Shown: positions 3,136-13,632 of the stretch, in pieces | Layout of the letters: each line of letters begins with the position of its first letter | Position numbering within the stretch: position 1 is the first letter of the stretch | IMG/VR virus record: IMGVR_UViG_3300014039_000016 | Span: 136,829 to 150,460 of that record | Length of the DNA: 13,632 bases | DNA from: a virus | Reading direction: 5' to 3' (one strand) | Notes under the pieces: model-generated | What the model was told of the DNA's origin: nothing | Database searches by the model: none | Seen by the model: the letters and a program-made list of their open reading frames with translations, nothing else | Translations under genes and position numbers: made by a program

Positions 3136-3985
3136 CTATATCCTCTTTTCTTTTCTCTTTATATTCTAATCCTTTTTCTGCAAGTGACCTCGCAACATGT
3201 TCTGCGGCAATGCATATTTGACAACCTGAAGAAGTATATCCGCATCTTTTGTGACAATTTTTTCTAATCTGCCCGAAAGTAGGTATAATTGAAGAATTTA
3301 TTTCTATATTGTCCTCAGGATTGTAACCACTGATAATTAAATTTAGAGGACCTTTCCAGCTCTGTTCCTTATATATTTTATATAAAGTATTCTGTTTATC
3401 TACAGGACCAAAAAACTCCATAACATCAACACAATCTTCATAATATTTTACATCTTCTGGTCTAATAAAAAACTTAGTAATTGATTTAATGCCATCTGCT
3501 CGACTAACGCTGCTCTGTGCTACATTAGGAAACACTCTGATTTTAACCTTATTCTTGCAGATATCATATTTAATGTCAGATAGGAAAAAAGCAAGTTCAT
3601 CTGTTATATATACATCTGTAACGCCTTCAGATATATACTGATTTAGTGCATCTATTGTATTTACCTTTTCACAATAAAAGAAAGGAAGCTTATTTTCTTC
3701 TACTCTTCTCATACATTCAACTGTTCTTGATATCATAAAAGTTATATTAGGATGTATTTCATAGCACATTTTAAAAACATTAATTGTTTGTTTAAGTTCT
3801 ATAGTAATCATATGTGTAACATCCACCACAATTCTCAAATCTTGTCTTTTACTTTTTACAAAATCAATAAGCGCAGATGCGTACTTTGTAAGTATTGGAT
3901 ATTTATTAAAATCATATTTAATAATAATTTCCTGTATTTCATCTTCATATGCAAAACCTTTAAACCAATTTATAGCATAGTTCAT
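3122..3985 (-). CDS. Hypothetical protein, 287 aa, with a C-terminal Cys cluster (C-x3-C-x6-C-x2-C...H)
   Basis: ORF with an AAAGGAGA ribosome-binding site 9 nt upstream. Its end overlaps the start of the downstream gene. The C-terminal CHKRCGYTSSGCQIC cluster suggests metal binding. I recognise no fold. Confidence 0.6.
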   Translation of the reverse strand: MNYAINWFKGFAYEDEIQEIIIKYDFNKYPILTKYASALIDFVKSKRQDLRIVVDVTHMITIELKQTINVFKMCYEIHPNITFMISRTVECMRRVEENKLPFFYCEKVNTIDALNQYISEGVTDVYITDELAFFLSDIKYDICKNKVKIRVFPNVAQSSVSRADGIKSITKFFIRPEDVKYYEDCVDVMEFFGPVDKQNTLYKIYKEQSWKGPLNLIISGYNPEDNIEINSSIIPTFGQIRKNCHKRCGYTSSGCQICIAAEHVARSLAEKGLEYKEKRKEDIDDKE

Positions 3986-4012
3986 TTATCACATCTCCTT
4001 TAAGCTAAAATA

Positions 4013-4040
4013 GGGAAGAAAACATTTCTGCTTCCTTCCC
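4013..4040 (-). terminator. Weak hairpin plus T-tract between CDS 4060-4485 and CDS 3122-3985. Possible attenuator or partial terminator.
   Basis: GGGAAG(GAAG) pairs with CTTCC(C) in a hairpin, followed on the minus strand by TATTTTA. No promoter copy lies downstream, so read-through into gene 3122-3985 is expected. Confidence 0.3.
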
Positions 4041-4059
4041 TCAGAACTGAAATATTATA

Positions 4060-4485
4060 TTACTCTGCGTCAGTCTCTTCAGATACACCAGCCGCGAGTG
4101 CATATCCCATAACTCTACGAGTATCACGCTTTACCTGCTCCTTACGAGCTTCACCTATCTGAACTAGCTGTGAAAGTCTAGCACCAACCTTAGCCACTGT
4201 AAGCTCACCAGTTTCATCTGTAATCTGCTCAAAAATCTCATCTCTTGTCTGAAGCTCTTCTGTTAAAACCTTTTTAACAACCTCTCTAAGAGCATCTCCC
4301 TCAGCCGCCTTTTCTGCTGCCTTCTCCTTAGCTCTTTCCTTCTTAGCCTCAAGCTGCGCAACTGTACTATCAACATAATTAATCACATCAGAATCCTGAA
4401 CATCACCATCAAAAACCATATTTCCAATATTAGCCTTAATTGTTTCAAGAATCATTGCCTTTGTAATTTTAACTGTCTCTGCCAT
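4060..4485 (-). CDS. Hypothetical Ala/Glu/Lys-rich protein, about 141 aa
   Basis: ORF directly downstream of promoter 4530-4558. The AAGGAGAT ribosome-binding site favours the second ATG (MAETVK...). Local GC content of about 45% is noticeably above the rest of the window. The sequence is probably coiled-coil, for example AQLEAKKERAKEKAAEKAAEG. Confidence 0.6.
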   Translation of the reverse strand: MAETVKITKAMILETIKANIGNMVFDGDVQDSDVINYVDSTVAQLEAKKERAKEKAAEKAAEGDALREVVKKVLTEELQTRDEIFEQITDETGELTVAKVGARLSQLVQIGEARKEQVKRDTRRVMGYALAAGVSEETDAE

Positions 4486-4529
4486 AATCATTATCTCCTT
4501 TTTCTTATCTTTATCTTTATTACATATAT

Positions 4530-4558
4530 ATTATATCATAAAATTTTTAAGAAATCAA
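4530..4558 (-). promoter_or_regulatory. sigma-A-type promoter, family B. -35 TTGATT, 17-nt spacer, -10 TGaTATAAT.
   Basis: Minus strand reads TTGATTTCTTAAAAATTTTATGATATAAT, followed by the leader ATATATGTAATAAAGATAAAG. Confidence 0.7.
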
Positions 4559-4574
4559 TTATTCTTAAAAGTTC

Positions 4575-4617
4575 TATATATGTAAGAAAGAAGCTTTCTA
4601 TCTTTCTTACATATATA
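4575..4617 (-). terminator. 17-bp perfect inverted repeat with a 9-nt loop. Probable intrinsic terminator for the upstream operon, or an operator site.
   Basis: TATATATGTAAGAAAGA, then AGCTTTCTA, then TCTTTCTTACATATATA. On the minus strand it is followed by GAACTTTT. It sits between two tandem promoter copies, and its right arm overlaps the -10 and +1 of promoter 4617-4645. Confidence 0.45.
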
Positions 4618-4645
4618 TTATACCATAAAATTTTCTAAACTTCAA
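4617..4645 (-). promoter_or_regulatory. sigma-A-type promoter, family B copy. -35 TTGAAG, 17-nt spacer, -10 TGgTATAAT. It is embedded in the 3' end of CDS 4635-6626 and fires into the palindrome.
   Basis: Minus strand reads TTGAAGTTTAGAAAATTTTATGGTATAAT. The -35 lies within the last three codons of the 663-aa gene. Confidence 0.55.
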
Positions 4646-6626
4646 ATTTTTTAAGATTACTAAAGAAATATTTTTCAACTTCTTTTTCATCTACCTTCCC
4701 ATTATTAATAAAGGTCATTGAAGTTAATCTTGATTCATTAAATATACTACTAAGATAGTAGTAACTGTAAACATAACAATCTCTAATAAGCATCTCTTTT
4801 TTATGGTCTCTAAAATATCGTAAACATGCAGGACACATATAAAGAGGTTCTGCATTTCTGCCCTCTGGTAATAAACGAGTCTCATTAAATTCTGCTGCTT
4901 TAGGCGAAGTTCCTGCAGTGTTAGGCTTTAAATTTTCATAACAATATTTCAAATCCTTAAAACGATTCTCATATTCATAACTAATCTTGTTTTCATCTCT
5001 CCAAAAACCACAATTATACGCTTTTTGGTCAGCTTCTTTTTCTGTAAGCATATATTTCTTAACATCATCATCTTTTAAATAAAAAGCAGCAATATTCGAC
5101 TCTCTTTCTATAGGAGTTTCTCCTAAGAGAAAAGGCTTTCCGCAGCAAGGGCATATATAATAACCTTTAATGCAATTTCTACATCTCGTAACAGTGACAT
5201 CATCATTATAATCTTCATCCCATGAAGAATAATCAGAAATATCAAAAGTGAAAAGATTCTCAGGACCTACAAAATCTCCGCAATGTTCACATTTCTTAGT
5301 ATTGGAACATTCTTTACAGATTAAATCTTCCGTATTTTTATATCTATCATTCCAATCTGGCTCATCATAATCATCATGGTCAGTATCAAACTCAAGTAAT
5401 GGTTTTCCGCAACTAATACAGATAACAGGTCCTGATATATTAATCTTTCTAGTATGATGAATTGGATTGCGGACGCACCAATAACCATAATAGTTATCAT
5501 TACACATATCATTATACATAGCATTATTAGTAAAGTAAATCTTCTTTGGGATAAAGTTATTCCTATCCTTGCTATTCTCCAAATCTCTATCAATTATATA
5601 ATCATCAAGAGAATTAACATTAAGCATATCCTTATATGGCTCAATACCAAACTTATAAGTCCAACCAAGATTCTTTTCCGCCAATTCTCGGATAACTTCA
5701 ATTAACTTCTTGCTAAAAGTATCATTCTTATAAGGGTAAGACTTACCTGATACAACGATATCCTTATTAACAAAAAGTAAACTTCTCCATTTTTTATCAT
5801 TCCAAAAAGGATTGTCTTTAGCATCTGAATTATCAGATTCCAATCCCATCATTCTACTATTGCTTTCCAGATAACAACAGAGTGCATTATTAGAGTTCAT
5901 CATTTCATATGAACCAACCCTGTAACATCCGCTACGCTTCCACGACATGCAAGAAGACCAATCACTATTGTTATCACTCATAGTCATAAAGTCTAATGGG
6001 TGAATTGAAAAACAAAGATTACCCGCAAGTTCTTTCTCATTTAAAATGAGAGAAATCTTAATACGGACTTTCTCAAAGAAATCTATAATTTCCTTATCTG
6101 CGTTGCAATACTTTAATATTTTTCCAACAGCTCTGAATACTTTTGTCCCTGAAGGAATTTTTCTTTCCTTTAAAGACCCAGTATCATCAACTGGGCGCAG
6201 AAAAATATCATAATTCGTTAAATTATTAATTAATGCACGCTTTTCAAAGATATGGTCAAAAAGCGGCGGTATCCAATATCCGGCTTCATCAATACAGTGT
6301 CTTAAAGTGCTTAAAGCATCAACAGAATCCAAATAAACACTACATTCCTTTGCGATATCGTTTTCTGGTTTTTCATAATTAAATGGAATCTTGTAAATCA
6401 TCTGATTTCCAAGTAACTTATATAGAGTATTCTTACAAATACTCCACTTCTCAAGGAATTCTTTTAAAGGAATATACATTCCCTTATCTACTGGTGCGGC
6501 AATATAATCATTTATTTCATCAGACCAATGATTAATGCCATGAATACCCCATCTATAATAATACTCCGAAATCTTCTGAATATCTTCCTCCGTTAATTTT
6601 TCATATAAATCTATTCTTTCTTTCAT
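4635..6626 (-). CDS. Large hypothetical protein, 663 aa, with a multi-CxxC (zinc-ribbon-rich) C-terminal half
   Basis: Long uninterrupted ORF. Its start is coupled to the upstream gene (TAA-T-ATG) with an AAGGAG ribosome-binding site 11 nt upstream. It contains at least eight CxxC or CxC pairs, for example CISCGKP, CKECSNTKKCEHCG, CRNCIKGYYICPCCGKP and CPACLRY. I recognise no catalytic motif. Confidence 0.75.
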   Translation of the reverse strand: MKERIDLYEKLTEEDIQKISEYYYRWGIHGINHWSDEINDYIAAPVDKGMYIPLKEFLEKWSICKNTLYKLLGNQMIYKIPFNYEKPENDIAKECSVYLDSVDALSTLRHCIDEAGYWIPPLFDHIFEKRALINNLTNYDIFLRPVDDTGSLKERKIPSGTKVFRAVGKILKYCNADKEIIDFFEKVRIKISLILNEKELAGNLCFSIHPLDFMTMSDNNSDWSSCMSWKRSGCYRVGSYEMMNSNNALCCYLESNSRMMGLESDNSDAKDNPFWNDKKWRSLLFVNKDIVVSGKSYPYKNDTFSKKLIEVIRELAEKNLGWTYKFGIEPYKDMLNVNSLDDYIIDRDLENSKDRNNFIPKKIYFTNNAMYNDMCNDNYYGYWCVRNPIHHTRKINISGPVICISCGKPLLEFDTDHDDYDEPDWNDRYKNTEDLICKECSNTKKCEHCGDFVGPENLFTFDISDYSSWDEDYNDDVTVTRCRNCIKGYYICPCCGKPFLLGETPIERESNIAAFYLKDDDVKKYMLTEKEADQKAYNCGFWRDENKISYEYENRFKDLKYCYENLKPNTAGTSPKAAEFNETRLLPEGRNAEPLYMCPACLRYFRDHKKEMLIRDCYVYSYYYLSSIFNESRLTSMTFINNGKVDEKEVEKYFFSNLKKFEV

Positions 6627-7196: not shown

Positions 7197-7228
7197 AAAT
7201 CATACCTCTTTTCTTATTTTCTATATAT

Positions 7229-7257
7229 ATTATATCAAAAATTTTAAAAGAAATAAA
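7229..7257 (-). promoter_or_regulatory. sigma-A-type promoter, family B. -35 TTTATT, 17-nt spacer, -10 TGaTATAAT. Its -35 is formed by the U-tract of the upstream terminator.
   Basis: Minus strand reads TTTATTTCTTTTAAAATTTTTGATATAAT. Confidence 0.6.
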
Positions 7258-7280
7258 GCTGAGCTAAGTTACCCAGCTTT
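7255..7280 (-). terminator. Rho-independent terminator of the 7712-7279 operon
   Basis: 7-bp stem AAAGCTG/CAGCTTT with a 12-nt loop, followed on the minus strand by TTTATTTCTTTT. It overlaps the stop codon of CDS 7279-7500. Confidence 0.55.
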
Positions 7281-8680: not shown

Positions 8681-8713
8681 ATTTATTCACCTCTTTCTCT
8701 TTTCTATATAAAT

Positions 8714-8742
8714 ATTATATCATATTTTTTTATAAAAATAAA
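8714..8742 (-). promoter_or_regulatory. sigma-A-type promoter, family A. -35 TTTATT from the terminator U-tract, 17-nt spacer, -10 TGaTATAAT.
   Basis: Minus strand reads TTTATTTTTATAAAAAAATATGATATAAT. Confidence 0.6.
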
Positions 8743-8763
8743 GGAGGCATAAAAGCCTCCTTT
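8740..8763 (-). terminator. Rho-independent terminator of the 10226-8773 operon
   Basis: 9-bp GC-rich stem AAAGGAGGC/GCCTCCTTT with a 6-nt loop, followed on the minus strand by TATTTTTAT. Confidence 0.65.
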
Positions 8764-8772
8764 CCGCACATT

Positions 8773-9521: not shown

Positions 9522-10226
9522 TTATAAATATTCATTCCAGCCTGAAAAGTCAAGAATAATAGGGTCGCCATTTTCTCTGAAACCAATATTACCATTATGT
9601 AAATCTTCAACTACATTAGGAAATTCACTTTCTAAGAAGTCAATAAGTTTATCAACCATAGCCTTTCCATATCTTTCAATAGCAGCAGCAACCCATGAAG
9701 AATCTGCAAAACAATAATATTTTGAATCTGAATTAACAAAATTTAATGTTTCATCTTCTGAGACAGGACAATATTCATAGAAGTCTAATACTCTTTCCTG
9801 TTTGATAACAGTACCAGACTCACATTCTCCCATAATCTCTGTTTTTGGGAAAAAGATATCTAAACCATTCTCTTTTGCAGCTTCATAAACCTCATATTCT
9901 GTTAAACAATAGTCCCAACCTCGGTCCTCAGAATTGTCTGCGCCTCTAAATCTTGTAAAATAATCGTGGTCTACTGATTCATCATAATCCCACTTACCAG
10001 AATAAGGAACTTTGAGAACAGAGCTGCAGCCGGAAACAACAGCAACAGCCTTAGTTGCACCACGATATGCGCCGCCTGCAATCTTAGCATCTTTTAAAGC
10101 TTCTGAAATTAAAATTGTATTTTCTTCATCATCTTCATCATCGTCCCAGCCAAATTTCTCAGGAACTTTCTTTACAATTTCATTAAACACTTTTGTTAAT
10201 TTATCTTCTAATAATAATGTTGCCAT
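9522..10226 (-). CDS. Hypothetical protein, 234 aa, with an acidic N-terminal region
   Basis: ORF with an AAGAGGT ribosome-binding site. First gene after promoter 10262-10290. Confidence 0.65.
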   Translation of the reverse strand: MATLLLEDKLTKVFNEIVKKVPEKFGWDDDEDDEENTILISEALKDAKIAGGAYRGATKAVAVVSGCSSVLKVPYSGKWDYDESVDHDYFTRFRGADNSEDRGWDYCLTEYEVYEAAKENGLDIFFPKTEIMGECESGTVIKQERVLDFYEYCPVSEDETLNFVNSDSKYYCFADSSWVAAAIERYGKAMVDKLIDFLESEFPNVVEDLHNGNIGFRENGDPIILDFSGWNEYL

Positions 10227-10261
10227 ATTTATATACCTCTTTTCCTTTTCTTTATATAAAT

Positions 10262-10290
10262 ATTATAACATAATTTTTTACAAAAATAAA
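10262..10290 (-). promoter_or_regulatory. sigma-A-type promoter, family A. -35 TTTATT, 17-nt spacer, -10 TGtTATAAT.
   Basis: Minus strand reads TTTATTTTTGTAAAAAATTATGTTATAAT. Confidence 0.6.
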
Positions 10291-10311
10291 GCGGAGTATA
10301 GGACCCCGCTT
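10289..10311 (-). terminator. Rho-independent terminator of the 11373-10310 operon
   Basis: 6-7-bp stem AAGCGG/CCGCTT followed on the minus strand by TTTATTTTTG. It overlaps the stop codon of CDS 10310-10828. Confidence 0.5.
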
Positions 10312-10828
10312 AGTCTATCTTAAATTGAAAATCTCCGCCACTTTCATCAAGGTAATCATCTATTGATACATTAGGGTTTATTCTCTCAAGGACTTTGTCT
10401 GTATGAGAGCGAGAAAGAGAAATAAGTGCTTTTTTATTAGCTTTTGTGCGGCAAGTGGTACAAATACAATCACCAAAAGTAGCTATAGCTGTTGGAGTAA
10501 ATTCATATACATAATTAAAATCTCTTCCGTTATGCATCTTATTCTTATGTTCATCATACCACTTTTTTATTGATTCTTTCTCTTTTTCATTTACCGTAAA
10601 AGACTGATTTAAGATTTTTCTTAATCTATCAATTTCACTTTTCAATTTAGCAAGCTCCGCGTCTTTATAATGTTCGCTCTTGAGAGACTTGTTTTCCGCA
10701 ATTAACTCATCATTTTCTTTTAAAAGTCTTTTCATATTCCATTCAAGCTGAAAAAGAGATTCATCTACTTCTTTTTCTGTGCTTATAATTTTAATAGGAT
10801 TATCTTCAATATAACATATTCCCGCCAT
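10310..10828 (-). CDS. Hypothetical coiled-coil protein, 172 aa, with a C-terminal CxC..C motif. Paralogue of the upstream gene.
   Basis: ORF. Its start overlaps the stop of the upstream gene (TAATG), with a GGAAGGAG ribosome-binding site. It has an N-terminal heptad-rich region and the motif FGDCICTTCRTKA. Confidence 0.6.
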   Translation of the reverse strand: MAGICYIEDNPIKIISTEKEVDESLFQLEWNMKRLLKENDELIAENKSLKSEHYKDAELAKLKSEIDRLRKILNQSFTVNEKEKESIKKWYDEHKNKMHNGRDFNYVYEFTPTAIATFGDCICTTCRTKANKKALISLSRSHTDKVLERINPNVSIDDYLDESGGDFQFKID

Positions 10829-11373
10829 TATTCTTCTCCTTCCCAGGGGTATTTAGTTACTCTATATGAAACACCCTTCTTCCGCATTAATTCTAAAAGC
10901 TCATCATAGTTTAAATCTCTATGATTATTATATAATATCTTTGCACATTTAGCACAATAGCAAGTAGCTTCAGTTCCATTAATACCTGGTTTAAATACGA
11001 AGAATCTGTCTTTTGGTTTTAGGGGCGATTCTTTACGCTCTTGTATGTGCGCTTCCTCTCTATGATGCTGCCACCATTCTGTTATTCCGTAATTCTCATA
11101 TGTTGAAATAGTGAAGCTATTATAGTAACGCTCCTTATATTCTGCTAATTCTGCTTGTGTTTGAAGAAGGTCTTCTTTCAATTTCTTTATCTCTTCATTC
11201 TTATAAAGTTCTTCATCTAAGTTATTTACATAATTGCGCATTTCTAAAACTCTATCTTTAAGAGTGTTAAGACTTTCTGCGGTGTTGTTAAATGCTTCAT
11301 CAATAGTAGGTTTCTGCTCTTTCGTAAATAAGTCCTTTACTTTTTTACATTTGTTTAAATCATATGTCTCCAT
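10829..11373 (-). CDS. Hypothetical coiled-coil protein, 181 aa, with a C-terminal CxC..C motif
   Basis: ORF with a TAGGAGGA ribosome-binding site 7 nt upstream. It has an N-terminal coiled coil and the motif TEATCYCAKCAKI. Confidence 0.6.
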
Positions 11374-11404
11374 AAAATATTCCTCCTATTGTTTTTCTAC
11401 ATAA

Positions 11405-11433
11405 ATTATATCATATTTTTTTATAAAAATCAA
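11405..11433 (-). promoter_or_regulatory. sigma-A-type promoter, family A. -35 TTGATT, 17-nt spacer, -10 TGaTATAAT.
   Basis: Minus strand reads TTGATTTTTATAAAAAAATATGATATAAT. A short GC hairpin (AGCGGCGAAGCGCT) lies just upstream. Confidence 0.7.
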
Positions 11434-11568
11434 GCGGCGAAGCGCTCTTTAAAGAAACTTGTAGGGACCTATCATGAATTTTATAGACCCAACAGCCGCA
11501 GCAAGAAAAATAAGGCTTAATTGGAGAAAACGAAGGATTTCTGTATTTCCGAACAAAAGCGATTATCT

Positions 11569-11595
11569 GCAAGTGAAAATGTAGAAATCCACTTG
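11569..11595. promoter_or_regulatory. Inverted-repeat operator candidate (CAAGTG, 14-nt spacer, CACTTG) overlapping the -35 of the rightward promoter
   Basis: Perfect 6-bp half-sites. The right half shares bases with the TTGAAA -35 element. Confidence 0.35.
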
Positions 11596-11621
11596 AAAAA
11601 AAAGAAAAAATTTGATATAAT
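11593..11621 (+). promoter_or_regulatory. Rightward sigma-A-type promoter. -35 TTGAAA, 17-nt spacer, -10 TGaTATAAT.
   Basis: Plus strand reads TTGAAAAAAAAGAAAAAATTTGATATAAT. It is divergent from the leftward promoter at 11405-11433. Confidence 0.7.
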
Positions 11622-11645
11622 ATTATTGTAAGGAGGAATTAAAGA

Positions 11646-11819
11646 ATGATTATTGTTTGTGATATAAATTGTAAGTATAGAAATTCCAATGGCTTTTGTA
11701 CAAAAGACATTGTTCATATAGATAATAAATGTATTTGTAATGAAATGTATAAACCAACAGAGAAGATTGAGCGGAAACCGCAGATTGGTGAAACTTTAAT
11801 CTTGACTGAAGAAACTTAA
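11646..11819 (+). CDS. Small Cys-rich protein, 57 aa. Not in the supplied ORF track.
   Basis: An AAGGAGG ribosome-binding site lies 9 nt upstream of the ATG. Sequence is MIIVCDINCKYRNSNGFCTKDIVHIDNKCICNEMYKPTEKIERKPQIGETLILTEET. It is the first gene after a strong promoter. Confidence 0.5.
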   Translation: MIIVCDINCKYRNSNGFCTKDIVHIDNKCICNEMYKPTEKIERKPQIGETLILTEET

Positions 11820-11833
11820 AGGAGGGTTTCCGC

Positions 11834-12037
11834 GTGACATTAGAAGAATTAGCAGAAGAATTGGGTGTGAAACCTAATTATTTAAGAAAAAGATTTCAAG
11901 ATGTTAAAAAGAATAGAGAAAAGATAGGTATAATTATTGAAAAAGTAGGAAGAGCGGCTTCCGCGGAATATGGTATAAAAACATGGTATGATAGTGAAAT
12001 TAGATATGAGCATCTTGACCCAGATGATTTTGAATAA
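11834..12037 (+). CDS. Small HTH DNA-binding protein, 67 aa, GTG start
   Basis: An AAGGAGGG ribosome-binding site lies 8 nt upstream of the GTG. It has a helix-turn-helix-like segment LEELAEELGVKPNYLRKRF. It is paralogous to the N-terminus of the 260-aa protein. Confidence 0.6.
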   Translation: MTLEELAEELGVKPNYLRKRFQDVKKNREKIGIIIEKVGRAASAEYGIKTWYDSEIRYEHLDPDDFE

Positions 12038-12051
12038 AAAGGAGAAAATAA

Positions 12052-12294
12052 ATGAGTAACAAAAGAACAGTAAAGGAGATATTAACTCCTAATGAATATA
12101 TGGCATATGAAGCAATTTTAAAGAAATTGGTTCAAGGAGAACAAACTTGTGTAAATGTTTCACAGTTTGCAGATGAAATACACCTTTCCCGCACAAGTAT
12201 TAGTAGTATGTTAAAGAAGTTAGATTTGATTGGTGTTTTTGAAGTTAAAAGTGCGGGAATGAGAGGAACTTATATCAAGTTTTTACCTAATTAA
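12052..12294 (+). CDS. Winged-HTH-type small regulator, 80 aa
   Basis: An AAAGGAGA ribosome-binding site lies 8 nt upstream. It has an HTH-like segment VSQFADEIHLSRTSISSMLKKLDLIGV. Confidence 0.6.
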   Translation: MSNKRTVKEILTPNEYMAYEAILKKLVQGEQTCVNVSQFADEIHLSRTSISSMLKKLDLIGVFEVKSAGMRGTYIKFLPN

Positions 12295-12307
12295 AGAAAA
12301 TATTACT

Positions 12308-12400
12308 TTGGATTTTCAAATGAGAATGAGAATGAGAGGATTAATAAGATTGGAGCGAAGCGGAAATCTTTTAATCCCGAATTCTCATTTGAAAATCCAA
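12308..12400. repeat. About 93-nt near-perfect hairpin. The outer inverted repeat is 20 bp and perfect. The inner inverted repeat is 14 bp with one mismatch. The loop is 13 nt. One arm carries a (TGAGAA)3 tandem bulge.
   Basis: TTGGATTTTCAAATGAGAAT at 12308-12327 is the exact reverse complement of 12381-12400. The inner pair is GGATTAATAAGATT against AATCTTTTAATCC. Confidence 0.6.
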
Positions 12401-12408
12401 GACTTAGA

Positions 12409-12440
12409 GATGCGAACTTGTTCGCATCGACTTTATATAA
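12409..12440 (+). terminator. Rho-independent terminator for the rightward HTH operon
   Basis: 8-bp stem GATGCGAA/TTCGCATC with a CTTG tetraloop, followed by GACTTTATATAA. Confidence 0.5.
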
Positions 12441-12504
12441 AGAGTATTGAGTTTTTAAATTATTTATATCTAGGAAGTTAAAAGTTCAATACTCTTTATA
12501 TAAA
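12432..12504. repeat. 19-bp perfect inverted repeat with a 35-nt spacer. Candidate operator or origin element.
   Basis: TTTATATAAAGAGTATTGA at 12432-12450 is the reverse complement of 12486-12504. Confidence 0.55.
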
Positions 12505-12592
12505 AAATGGAAAAAGTGTCACCAATTTTTAACTTTCAGAAGAATAATCATTTAAAATTGTGACATTTTTATATAAAGGAGAGTAACATATA

Positions 12593-13375
12593 ATGAATAT
12601 AAAAGAAGTAAGTGAAGCTTTAGGAATTGCGGAATCTACATTAAAAAATAATTATAGAAGAACTGCGGAAAGTTTATTAAAGAAAGGTATTATTTTAAAT
12701 AAAGAAGGAAGGGGCATTTCCGCAGAATATACAATAGAATATGATATGAGTTTTAAAGATAATAGAGCTTTAACTATATTTGATGAAAAGAAAGAAATAT
12801 ATTTACAAGATGATATGTTAAAGATGATAGATTGGAATCTCTTGATATTAGTAGGAGTTTGTTTAACGCCTTTGTTAACTTTTAGAGGAAGTTATAAAGA
12901 TTTTTTAAATTATGTTGGAGTATTACCATCTGCCGCGAATATTAATAAGTTAAAGGAAGTATTAGTTGAAATGGATGCTGATTATATTGGTTATTATCCT
13001 GATAAAACAGATGAACAATATTTTACCGCGTCTTTATATAGGAGTGTTGAGAAGAAATATAAGGTTTCAATTATTAAGTTGCGGAAATGTAAAGAAATTC
13101 AAGAAAAATATCATGGAAGAAGCTTCATTCCGCTATTGAAAACTTGGTTAGCTACTGAAGAAGCAGTAAAGAATCAACCTTATACTATTGATGATTTGAT
13201 TGAATTGACAGGATTATCTAAGAGTACTATTGTTAAAGCTAATAGGCAGTTAAGAGATGAAAATGTTTATAGGTCAGAGAAAGATTATATTCCGGAGATG
13301 AAAATATGCCGAGGGGTAAATACTGATATCAATGGATTTTTTGATGAAATCCCAACAGATTTACCTAGAAAATGA
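12593..13375 (+). CDS. 260-aa protein with N-terminal and C-terminal HTH-like segments. Putative regulator or replication initiator.
   Basis: An AAAGGAGAG ribosome-binding site lies 10 nt upstream. Its first 50 residues are paralogous to the 67-aa HTH protein, including the shared pattern LG..L....GII..K.GR..SAEY.I. The C-terminus carries LIELTGLSKSTIVKANRQL. It is flanked by palindromes upstream and iterons downstream. Confidence 0.65.
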   Translation: MNIKEVSEALGIAESTLKNNYRRTAESLLKKGIILNKEGRGISAEYTIEYDMSFKDNRALTIFDEKKEIYLQDDMLKMIDWNLLILVGVCLTPLLTFRGSYKDFLNYVGVLPSAANINKLKEVLVEMDADYIGYYPDKTDEQYFTASLYRSVEKKYKVSIIKLRKCKEIQEKYHGRSFIPLLKTWLATEEAVKNQPYTIDDLIELTGLSKSTIVKANRQLRDENVYRSEKDYIPEMKICRGVNTDINGFFDEIPTDLPRK

Positions 13376-13376
13376 A

Positions 13377-13422
13377 TTTTAACTTACCTATATATAAGTA
13401 TATATATATTGGTAAGTTAAAA
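13377..13422 (+). terminator. 12-bp AT-rich inverted repeat with a 22-nt alternating AT loop. Weak terminator or cruciform.
   Basis: TTTTAACTTACC, then TATATATAAGTATATATATATT, then GGTAAGTTAAAA. No clear U-tract follows. Confidence 0.3.
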
Positions 13423-13457
13423 TATAAAAAATGAATGAATCTGTTGGGATTTTAGAT

Positions 13458-13570
13458 AAATGTATTAAAATAGAGACTGTGTATTATTTTAATTAAATTG
13501 TATTAAAAAGGGGCTGTGATGTTTGTTTTAATAAAAATGTATTAAAATGCAATAAAATAGGGGTTGTGTA
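13458..13570 (+). repeat. Three direct repeats (iteron-like), consensus TGTATTAAAA, 2-14 nt, GRGRYTGTG, spaced 37-50 bp apart
   Basis: TGTATTAAAA occurs at 13461, 13499 and 13538. Each is followed by GAGACTGTG, GGGGCTGTG or GGGGTTGTG respectively. Confidence 0.5.
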
Positions 13571-13586
13571 GTTTAATTACTTATTT

Positions 13587-13613
13587 ATATATATATATAT
13601 ATATATATATTAT
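13587..13613. repeat. (AT)13 dinucleotide tract. Candidate DNA-unwinding element.
   Basis: 27 nt of uninterrupted alternating AT lie next to the iteron-like repeats at the window edge. Confidence 0.6.
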
Positions 13614-13632
13614 TTTTATTAAAATATGACAA

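Follow-up and report, generated by a model that had tools for sequence, protein, structure and literature searches.

A three-gene operon encoding a stand-alone CodY-type DNA-binding domain upstream of a probable replication module in a gut phage-like element

Introduction

CodY is the global regulator of Firmicutes that senses GTP as well as branched-chain amino acids. In the Gram-positive theta plasmid pIP501 the Cop repressor CopR is encoded upstream of rep together with an antisense RNA and attenuator, the origin lying downstream of rep, whilst proteins consisting of just the DNA-binding domain of a longer protein can act as its antagonists, as InsA of IS1 does towards the transposase and as the short forms of pi do in R6K. 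Here we describe a locus that bears comparison with all of these, located towards the right end of a 13,632-nucleotide stretch of viral DNA (positions 136,829 to 150,460 of IMG/VR record IMGVR_UViG_3300014039_000016, hereafter the window) and comprising three small open reading frames (ORFs), named ORF57, ORF67 and ORF80 after the lengths of their products, followed by a longer gene, ORF260 (Table 1). An original prediction, made from the nucleotide sequence, saw in the three small genes the layout of an anti-CRISPR-like (acr-aca) operon. We arrive at a different reading, to which we give about an even chance, namely that the locus is the early regulatory and replication-control operon of a phage-like element and lies upstream of a probable replication module.

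Each of the described systems is matched in part. ORF80 aligns with the whole DNA-binding domain of CodY (PDB entries 2b0l, 5loe and 8c7t) but, unlike CodY, is encoded by a phage-like element, is devoid of the GAF and linker regions, and has serines at the positions of the thymine-contacting valines and another residue at that of the dimer-stacking tyrosine. ORF260 resembles the Rep_3 proteins (R6K pi, pPS10 RepA and F RepE) and lambda O in its predicted tandem winged helices and in the direct repeats and AT-rich tract that adjoin it, whereas it differs from them in having an extra N-terminal winged helix-turn-helix (HTH), duplicated as ORF67, in scoring below the family thresholds and in that no DnaA boxes were found. 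By analogy, the succession of small DNA-binding genes, structured terminator region, rep-like gene and origin-like repeats may be likened to that of Cop-type regions, in which the order is the same, although there is no sequence homology to CopR or CopF and Inc18 origins are not iteron-based. ORF67 may similarly be likened to InsA and the short pi forms in that it matches the larger protein encoded next to it only in the N-terminal DNA-binding domain, but it is a separate, diverged gene rather than an alternative product of one gene, and any competition with ORF260 is presumed. The likeness to acr-aca loci lies in a small novel ORF in first place, HTH genes downstream of it, a strong promoter and an ORF67-like anchor that follows differing small ORFs; unlike loci with Aca1/Aca2-type HTH proteins, this one has no conserved inverted-repeat operator, its HTH proteins appear not to be of the Xre type, and the ORF57 family is tied to the ORF260 family even where a small HTH gene is absent.

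Results and discussion

The operon and its promoter

The three genes start from a divergent junction (11374–11645) with two promoters about 160 bp apart. The rightward promoter, a sigma-A/sigma-70-type site with an extended −10 element, agrees with the consensus at 11 of 12 positions and is the top site within 10800–13632. In comparisons with related loci (numbered from L001, which reaches ~9.7 kb to the right of the window) the operon was nearly identical across 12 loci, on metagenomic or IMG/VR contigs of ~145–156 kb, and the promoter was identical in all 12. The sequence from the spacer of the inverted repeat discussed below through the Shine-Dalgarno site was also invariant, save for one G/A position just before that site. 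Each of the three ORFs has an AGGAG-type Shine-Dalgarno site and the intergenic gaps measure 14 nt. The strong plus-strand promoter and the three-gene operon under it are both borne out. The ribosome-binding site of ORF57, said in the prediction to be the best in the window, is indeed strong but is not unique, AAGGAGG occurring seven times over the two strands. The leftward promoter, with 10 of 12 consensus positions, heads a long leftward gene block, the first gene of which, a 181-amino-acid ORF (10828–11373), matched no DNA-binding family in Pfam or PHROGs and gave weak matches to coiled-coil-type families.

An inverted repeat over the −35 element of the rightward promoter had been put forward as an operator. 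The repeat is present, and 3 nt of it fall within the −35 element, but it is neither unusual nor conserved. Perfect 6-nt inverted repeats with spacers of 8–20 nt number 165 in the window (~12 per kb), compared with 102 ± 16 in Markov-simulated sequence, and 22% of 60-nt segments contain one (2.6% if at least three G/C are required in each arm). The left arm reads TAAGTG in L011 and TATGTG in L023 without a compensating change in the right arm, in a promoter that is otherwise invariant; the constancy of the right arm is uninformative because that arm is part of the −35 element. Since it occurs at chance-level frequency and has a left arm that mutates uncompensated, the repeat is weak evidence for an operator and is probably fortuitous. 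A search for a motif shared by the operon promoter and the stretch preceding ORF260 yielded none that is conserved, and a GTGTCAC ... GTGACA pair upstream of ORF260 has lost one arm in L023.

ORF67 and the replication module

The second gene does encode a 67-amino-acid HTH protein, though apparently not a member of the Xre/Cro group, against the models of which, along with Aca families, the prediction had proposed to search it. By itself ORF67 gives weak, sub-threshold HTH matches (MerR/HTH_17-like), and its HTH_3 score is 19.6 bits, over 22 residues only, against a cut-off of 23 bits. Sequence comparison indicates that it is clearly a paralogue of the winged HTH formed by residues 1–50 of ORF260: BLASTP aligned it with the first 48–50 residues of ORF260 at 38% identity over 48 amino acids (E = 6e-9), and alignment of the ORF67 family (A7) with the ORF260 family (A1) in hhalign gave a probability of 98.3% (E = 1.5e-14). 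Stand-alone ORF67-like genes occur in four lineages (the window, L013, L016 and L034/L035), always on the same strand as, and within ~1.3 kb upstream of, an ORF260 homologue among the ~20 diverged loci compared, and no homologue was found other than next to a gene of the ORF260 family in this group of phages. The small ORFs that precede them differ (94 and 63 amino acids in L016, 56 and 62 in L034). The homology between ORF67 and ORF260, together with this recurrent position, therefore favours a functional link between the two. The ratio of nonsynonymous to synonymous codon differences, summed over four comparisons, was 1:14 for ORF67 and 3:23 for ORF80, and both genes are under strong purifying selection; for ORF260, summed over two comparisons, the ratio was 8:25.

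ORF260, which lies beyond the region covered by the original prediction, has 15 relatives with 33–97% identity. Its AlphaFold2 model, with a mean predicted local distance difference test (pLDDT) score of 80, comprises the N-terminal winged HTH and two further winged-helix modules, and its structural matches include pi, RepA and ‘Replication protein O’, the last being the annotation of the top BFVD match (E = 2.6e-5, template modelling score 0.52). Nine of the 15 family members matched Rep3_N at E ≤1 (best 1e-5) whilst the window protein itself did not, and the matches of the family to Rep3_N and Phage_rep_O are sub-threshold. Downstream of the gene, iteron-like direct repeats with the core AAAATAGGGGYTGTG adjoin a (TA)n tract; to the three copies inside the window are added a fourth direct and one inverted copy just beyond its end, all five falling within 200 bp. 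Across L001 the core has eight matches where 1.1 are expected, five of them clustered downstream of ORF260. Of seven related loci examined, six have direct repeats after the ORF260 homologue, with a sequence that differs by lineage; the promoter region of the L016 homologue also holds the repeat core, there as an inverted pair. We therefore predict, with reasonable though not high confidence, that ORF260 is an iteron-type replication initiator.

Position 3709–4305 of L014, upstream of the ORF260 homologue, is occupied by a gene for a 198-amino-acid protein with an N-terminal winged HTH and, as judged by eye, a GIY-YIG-like C-terminal half, which would be a homing-endonuclease-like insertion at the position of the small-gene operon.

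ORF57, a small protein with four invariant cysteines

The 57-amino-acid ORF with five cysteines was also correctly described, although it is not ‘unannotated’ in that gene callers do call it in public assemblies. A word-based search with ORF57 returned near-identical copies only; distant homologues came to light through inspection of loci with a diverged ORF260, namely L013 (71 amino acids), L018 (78), L022 (142) and L040/L043. With the window these make five lineages, in all of which the gene is on the same strand as the ORF260 homologue and within ~1.3 kb upstream of it. In L018, L022 and L040/L043 the ORF57-like gene lies directly upstream of the ORF260 homologue without any small HTH gene, and in L040/L043 no other gene separates the ORF260 homologue from the divergent promoter. 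The family alignment (A6) has C5, C9, Y11, C18 and C31 invariant, with variable C-terminal tails and an unconserved fifth cysteine, C29, and the four invariant cysteines persist across lineages in which the ORF260 proteins are just 36–61% identical. Judged by this conservation, ORF57 is a genuine gene, and its product is probably metal-binding.

Sequence and profile searches with ORF57 gave no match in Pfam, PHROGs, NCBIfam or the PDB, and the AlphaFold2 model was unusable (mean pLDDT 47.5). DUF1540 (PF07561), a Cys-rich domain considered as a candidate, was dropped, no Pfam match being obtained for ORF57 (E up to 1), for the L013 homologue (E up to 5) or for those of L018 and L022 (E up to 10). 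Among close strains ORF57 accumulates amino acid changes much faster than its neighbours, with nonsynonymous to synonymous codon differences of 4:4 against L023, 5:1 against L011 and 3:4 against L012, none of the changes falling at an invariant residue. Such fast evolution would suit a protein with a role in host interaction.

ORF80, a CodY DNA-binding domain without its sensor

That the third gene encodes an 80-amino-acid winged-HTH protein was correct but understated, for the protein is a homologue of the DNA-binding domain of CodY. ORF80 scored 37.2 bits with the Pfam model HTH_CodY (PF08222), above the gathering threshold of 27 bits (E = 2.2e-9, profile positions 7–49 of 61), and aligned with positions 181–246 of 259 of the NCBIfam CodY equivalog model (E = 1.8e-12), with 47 bits against a cut-off of 255 bits. 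CodY chains in the PDB (8c7t, 2b0l and 5loe) matched at E ~1e-8 over 68–70 residues, and ORF80 is ~41% identical to CodY of 8c7t over residues 11–78 and ~40% identical to the solved CodY structures. The GM(K/R)GTYIK wing motif and the overall pattern of the recognition helix are conserved. As it has neither a GAF sensor domain nor a linker helix, ORF80 is devoid of ligand control and of the main dimer interface. In CodY–DNA complexes the Gly-Met of the wing enters the AT minor groove whilst Val216 and Val218 contact thymine methyl groups (PMC10415144). By comparison with the same work, ORF80 keeps the wing Gly-Met, has Ser, Thr, Ser, Ser and Lys in place of Thr213, Ser215, Val216, Val218 and Arg222 of Staphylococcus aureus CodY, and has lost the tyrosine that stacks across CodY dimers. 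Fold and mode of binding are thus probably CodY-like, whilst the specificity for DNA may differ.

In an exhaustive search, HMMER found 58 relatives at E ≤1e-3 among 1.84 billion cluster representatives, in which full-length CodY proteins (240–275 amino acids, matching at their C-terminus) are mixed with 18 proteins of at most 135 amino acids. The two short forms that were looked up, both from phage-like contigs, align with ORF80 across the whole domain; the gene for one (P0027) lies two genes upstream of terminase and portal genes and after methyltransferase genes, and that for the other (P0026) amongst ParM-like, DUF1064 and DUF3310 genes. Amongst the ~20 diverged loci of the ORF260 family, ORF80 is present in the lineage of the window only. 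No description of phage-encoded CodY-domain proteins was found in the literature that could be searched.

A scan with the consensus CodY box, AATTTTCWGAAAATT, found no convincing site in the operon promoter; a candidate with three mismatches (12531–12545) overlaps a weak putative −35 element of ORF260. Two further leads were set aside. As a paralogue of the C-terminal winged HTH of ORF260, ORF80 reached an hhalign probability of only 0.7%, and the tblastn matches of ORF80 to nine unannotated Listeria, Enterococcus and Staphylococcus ‘phage’ records (34–41% identity) may represent host CodY and were not used.

Hairpins and the boundary of exchange

Directly after ORF80 the sequence is highly structured, with a nested hairpin, a terminator-like hairpin taken as the end of the operon, and an AT-rich hairpin (Table 1). 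The region 12295–12445 folds as RNA at −50.9 kcal/mol (z = −7.5 against shuffled sequence), and in L023 the left arm of the nested hairpin has C changed to A opposite a change of G to T in the right arm. Rfam searches of 11300–13632 and of L001 gave only sub-threshold look-alikes of microRNA precursors for the hairpins. The nested and the AT-rich hairpins are exceptionally stable and may serve in processing or attenuation, as signals for single-strand initiation or as boundaries of recombination.

L009 and L010 are nearly identical to the window until ~13 nt past the terminator (~12441), a breakpoint in the left arm of the 27-bp AT-rich hairpin, after which an unrelated gene for a 236-amino-acid HTH protein replaces ORF260 (window from 12441 onward compared with L009 from 10797, aligned over 9730–11100, and with L010). 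In L012 the ORF260 cassette has apparently been swapped likewise, as the scripted comparison found no ORF260 there. The break in identity immediately after the terminator indicates that the operon and ORF260 are separate modules and that ORF260 is an exchangeable cassette, and the swap in L009 and L010 is consistent with module exchange.

The motif GCGAAGC, found at the apex of the inner stem of the nested hairpin, which we take to be the sequence of a very stable DNA mini-hairpin, has six copies in L001 where 0.7 are expected, four of the six being intergenic. Its positions are 11437–11443 and 12355–12361 in the window, and 12266, 14358, 17300 and 17685 in L001.

Function of the operon

The reality of the genes, their homologies, the structure of the operon and its linkage in several lineages are shown by the comparisons above, whereas the DNA targets, the timing of expression and the direction of regulation are inferred as follows. 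The near-consensus, host-type promoter would transcribe the three tightly packed genes early, with transcription stopping at the hairpins in 12307–12428. ORF67 would bind DNA sites related to those of ORF260 and so modulate expression of ORF260 or use of the origin. ORF80 would be a transcription factor that needs no ligand and has AT-rich operators in the phage, and possibly also in the host, whilst ORF57 might be an accessory factor of the replication module or a protein that interacts with the host. As a phage early regulatory and replication-control region the locus would be of a familiar kind, and its most interesting part, the sensor-less CodY domain, may represent an undescribed class of phage regulator or of host-regulator mimic.

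Several observations weigh against this proposal. The three genes are not kept together across lineages, ORF80 being unique to this one, and may be functionally unrelated cargo. No DNA target was identified for ORF57, ORF67 or ORF80, and the sole inverted repeat of the promoter is unconserved. The CodY box has scarcely more matches than expected (10 against 4.8 ± 2.3, with six of 200 shuffles reaching 10). Fast evolution such as that of ORF57 typifies proteins for host interaction or counter-defence more than it does core replication factors. On the side of the replication module, GC skew follows the coding strand with no origin-type switch, and DnaA boxes occur at chance level.

That the operon is an anti-defence one, in which ORF57 would inhibit CRISPR-Cas or a different host defence and ORF67, ORF80 or both would be Aca-like autorepressors of the strong promoter, appears quite improbable to us. 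The architecture on which the prediction was based holds: a small novel ORF comes first, small HTH genes follow at 14-nt gaps and the promoter is very strong. ORF57, moreover, has no known domain and a high nonsynonymous to synonymous ratio compared with its neighbours, and the occurrence of ORF67-like genes behind differing small ORFs (L016 and L034) resembles a guilt-by-association pattern. The identity of the parts, on the other hand, does not hold. The proposed operator is at chance level and unconserved; ORF67 falls below the HTH_3 threshold and has as its sole clear relative the N-terminal domain of ORF260, its homologues being found beside ORF260-family genes and not beside diverse acr genes in unrelated elements. 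ORF57-like genes also occur without a small HTH gene, and keep their four cysteines across widely diverged ORF260 lineages; ORF80 is a CodY DNA-binding domain whose two short relatives examined adjoin a terminase or a ParM-like gene; and no anti-defence model was matched in PHROGs or NCBIfam. The observation behind the prediction is thus confirmed in part and its interpretation supported in part, the architecture standing and the acr-aca identity not. Closer to the mark as a regulatory module was the other option raised with the prediction, an immunity switch, in which the two small DNA-binding proteins would act in a lysis–lysogeny decision in the manner of Cro and CI, or in plasmid–prophage copy control of a phage-plasmid maintained by ORF260 and its iterons. 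It is in keeping with strong divergent promoters ~160 bp apart, an adjoining iteron-type, replicon-like module and a cassette exchange reminiscent of the swapping of immunity or incompatibility regions. Nonetheless, ORF scans of the 13.6-kb window and precomputed Pfam marks over the ~9.7 kb of L001 to its right contained no CI-like repressor, S24 peptidase domain, integrase or partition genes, the first leftward gene matches no DNA-binding family in Pfam or PHROGs and no conserved operator was found, which makes such a switch quite improbable. We also consider it unlikely that the genes are unrelated early cargo, that is independent takeover or accessory genes sharing a promoter at a hot spot of gene shuffling. 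Upstream of the ORF260 family the rightward operon is a shuffled set of small genes, its content differing in nearly every lineage of the ~20 diverged loci, recombination breakpoints flank the region, and ORF80 is confined to one lineage, all as this explanation would have it; against it stand the homology of ORF67 to the N-terminal domain of its own neighbour and the recurrence, in several lineages, of ORF57-like and ORF67-like genes at the position adjoining ORF260.

For anti-defence mining the locus is a caution, in that a small ORF, small HTH genes and a strong promoter do not suffice for an acr-aca call; here a cassette of regulators joined to a replication module explains the same layout better. 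Two uncharacterised families of small proteins, those of ORF57 with its four invariant cysteines and of ORF67, are linked to a Rep-like gene in this phage group. The presence of sensor-less CodY DNA-binding domains in some gut phage-like elements also offers a lead on host mimicry. In a bolder form, which we put forward as speculation and would not expect to hold, ORF80 would belong to a class of phage ‘mini-CodY’ proteins, captured sensor-less domains that are always-on mimics or competitors of the host nutrient regulator, and ORF57 and ORF67 would be a new layer of control on an iteron-type phage replicon. If true, a mini-CodY would make the expression of host or phage genes during infection independent of the nutritional state.

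The element and its phage group

The window is AT-rich (31% G+C). Identical proteins of the same genes are encoded on metagenomic contigs of 144–156 kb, such as ENA ERZ27300203 k119_84704 (150,367 bp) and ERZ808287 NODE_10 (151,093 bp), two IMG/VR viral contigs (145 and 147 kb) likewise carry the operon genes, and the exact sequence of ORF67 occurs in 251 public contigs. No match was obtained by megablast of the whole window against deposited phage and plasmid collections, nor by tblastn of ORF260 against phages. Pfam and PHROG matches are nearly nil among the neighbouring proteins, the exception being an M28/M20-like peptidase that matches phage PHROGs, and neither the window nor the adjoining sequence that was covered showed virion genes. 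The element is accordingly described as phage-like, of ~150 kb and from gut metagenomes, the term ‘phage’ resting on its IMG/VR classification and its relatives, which form a widespread group of ~130–150 kb. A scan of genome contigs for the host returned three contigs of metagenome-assembled genomes only, from unrelated taxa, and is unreliable for inferring the host.

Three genetic codes appear to be in use within this group, the phage of the window using the standard one. The ORF260 homologues of L033, L036, L038, L039 and L044 have in-frame TGA at conserved tryptophan columns (DWN, RSWVP and KTWxG), which implies code 4 for these loci, and those of L040, L043 and L045 have 7–10 in-frame TAG, several at columns where relatives have glutamine, which implies code 15. 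The recoded homologues lie at ~4001–4760 in each locus, except in L038 (864–1619), and the recoding thus reaches a gene of the regulatory and replication region, beyond late genes alone.

Table 1. Coordinates of the features described, numbered from the first nucleotide of the window.
Feature	Position	Strand	Details
Cys-rich protein gene	4635–6626	−	663 amino acids
Leftward promoter	11405–11433	−	TTGATT, 17 nt, TATAAT; TG present
Inverted repeat	11570–11595		CAAGTG (11570–11575), 14 nt, CACTTG (11590–11595)
Rightward promoter	11593–11621	+	TTGAAA (11593–11598), 17 nt, TGaTATAAT (TATAAT at 11616–11621)
ORF57	11646–11819	+	57 amino acids, 5 Cys; putative Cys4 mini-domain
ORF67	11834–12037	+	67 amino acids, GTG start; single-domain winged HTH
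ORF80	12052–12294	+	80 amino acids; stand-alone homologue of the CodY C-terminal winged-HTH domain
Nested hairpin	12307–12401	+	95 nt, 21-bp outer stem; GCGAAGC at apex of inner stem
Terminator-like hairpin	12409–12428	+	8-bp stem with 4 GC pairs
AT-rich hairpin/inverted repeat	12432–12505		27 bp; 30-nt arms 90% complementary; z = −7.1
ORF260	12593–13375	+	N-terminal ORF67-like winged HTH, then two winged-helix domains; probable iteron-type replication initiator or regulator
Iteron-like direct repeats	13467–13632	+	core AAAATAGGGGYTGTG at 13467, 13504 and 13554; (TA)n tract ~13587–13616
TTCCGC, examples	170, 1195, 2718, 5138, 5405, 5676, 6854, 7554, 8762, 10694, 10880	+	reverse complement of GCGGAA
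GCGGAA, examples	11771, 11963, 12360, 12629, 12665, 13081	+	

Further sequence signals

The largest gene of the window encodes the Cys-rich protein listed in Table 1, which has many CxxC pairs, is kept in all close relatives and has no Pfam or PHROG match. In the leftward gene block, four of the five intergenic regions compared (4486–4634, 7197–7278, 8681–8772, 10227–10309 and 11374–11433) share one layout, comprising a GC hairpin (terminator), an A/T-rich stretch and an extended −10 element (TGnTATAAT) without a good −35; in region 4486–4634 the hairpin lies between two such extended −10 promoters. This suggests a recurring terminator–promoter cadence in the block. To the right of the window, five intergenic regions of L001 (13986–20017) share a unit that runs antisense to the flanking genes and consists of TTGACAAAA, 17 nt, TAcAAT and AAATTCCGGCGAAGCCGGACGC, followed by a second GC hairpin and a run of T. 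The unit matches neither Rfam nor any tRNA and resembles a small promoter-plus-hairpin-RNA present in five copies. The hexamer GCGGAA, often within TGCGGAAA, is ~10-fold over-represented throughout the window and in 12931–18553 of L001. It is mostly on the sense strand for either direction of the genes, and since it occurs in all three frames and in intergenic DNA it is a DNA- or RNA-level signal rather than a codon effect.

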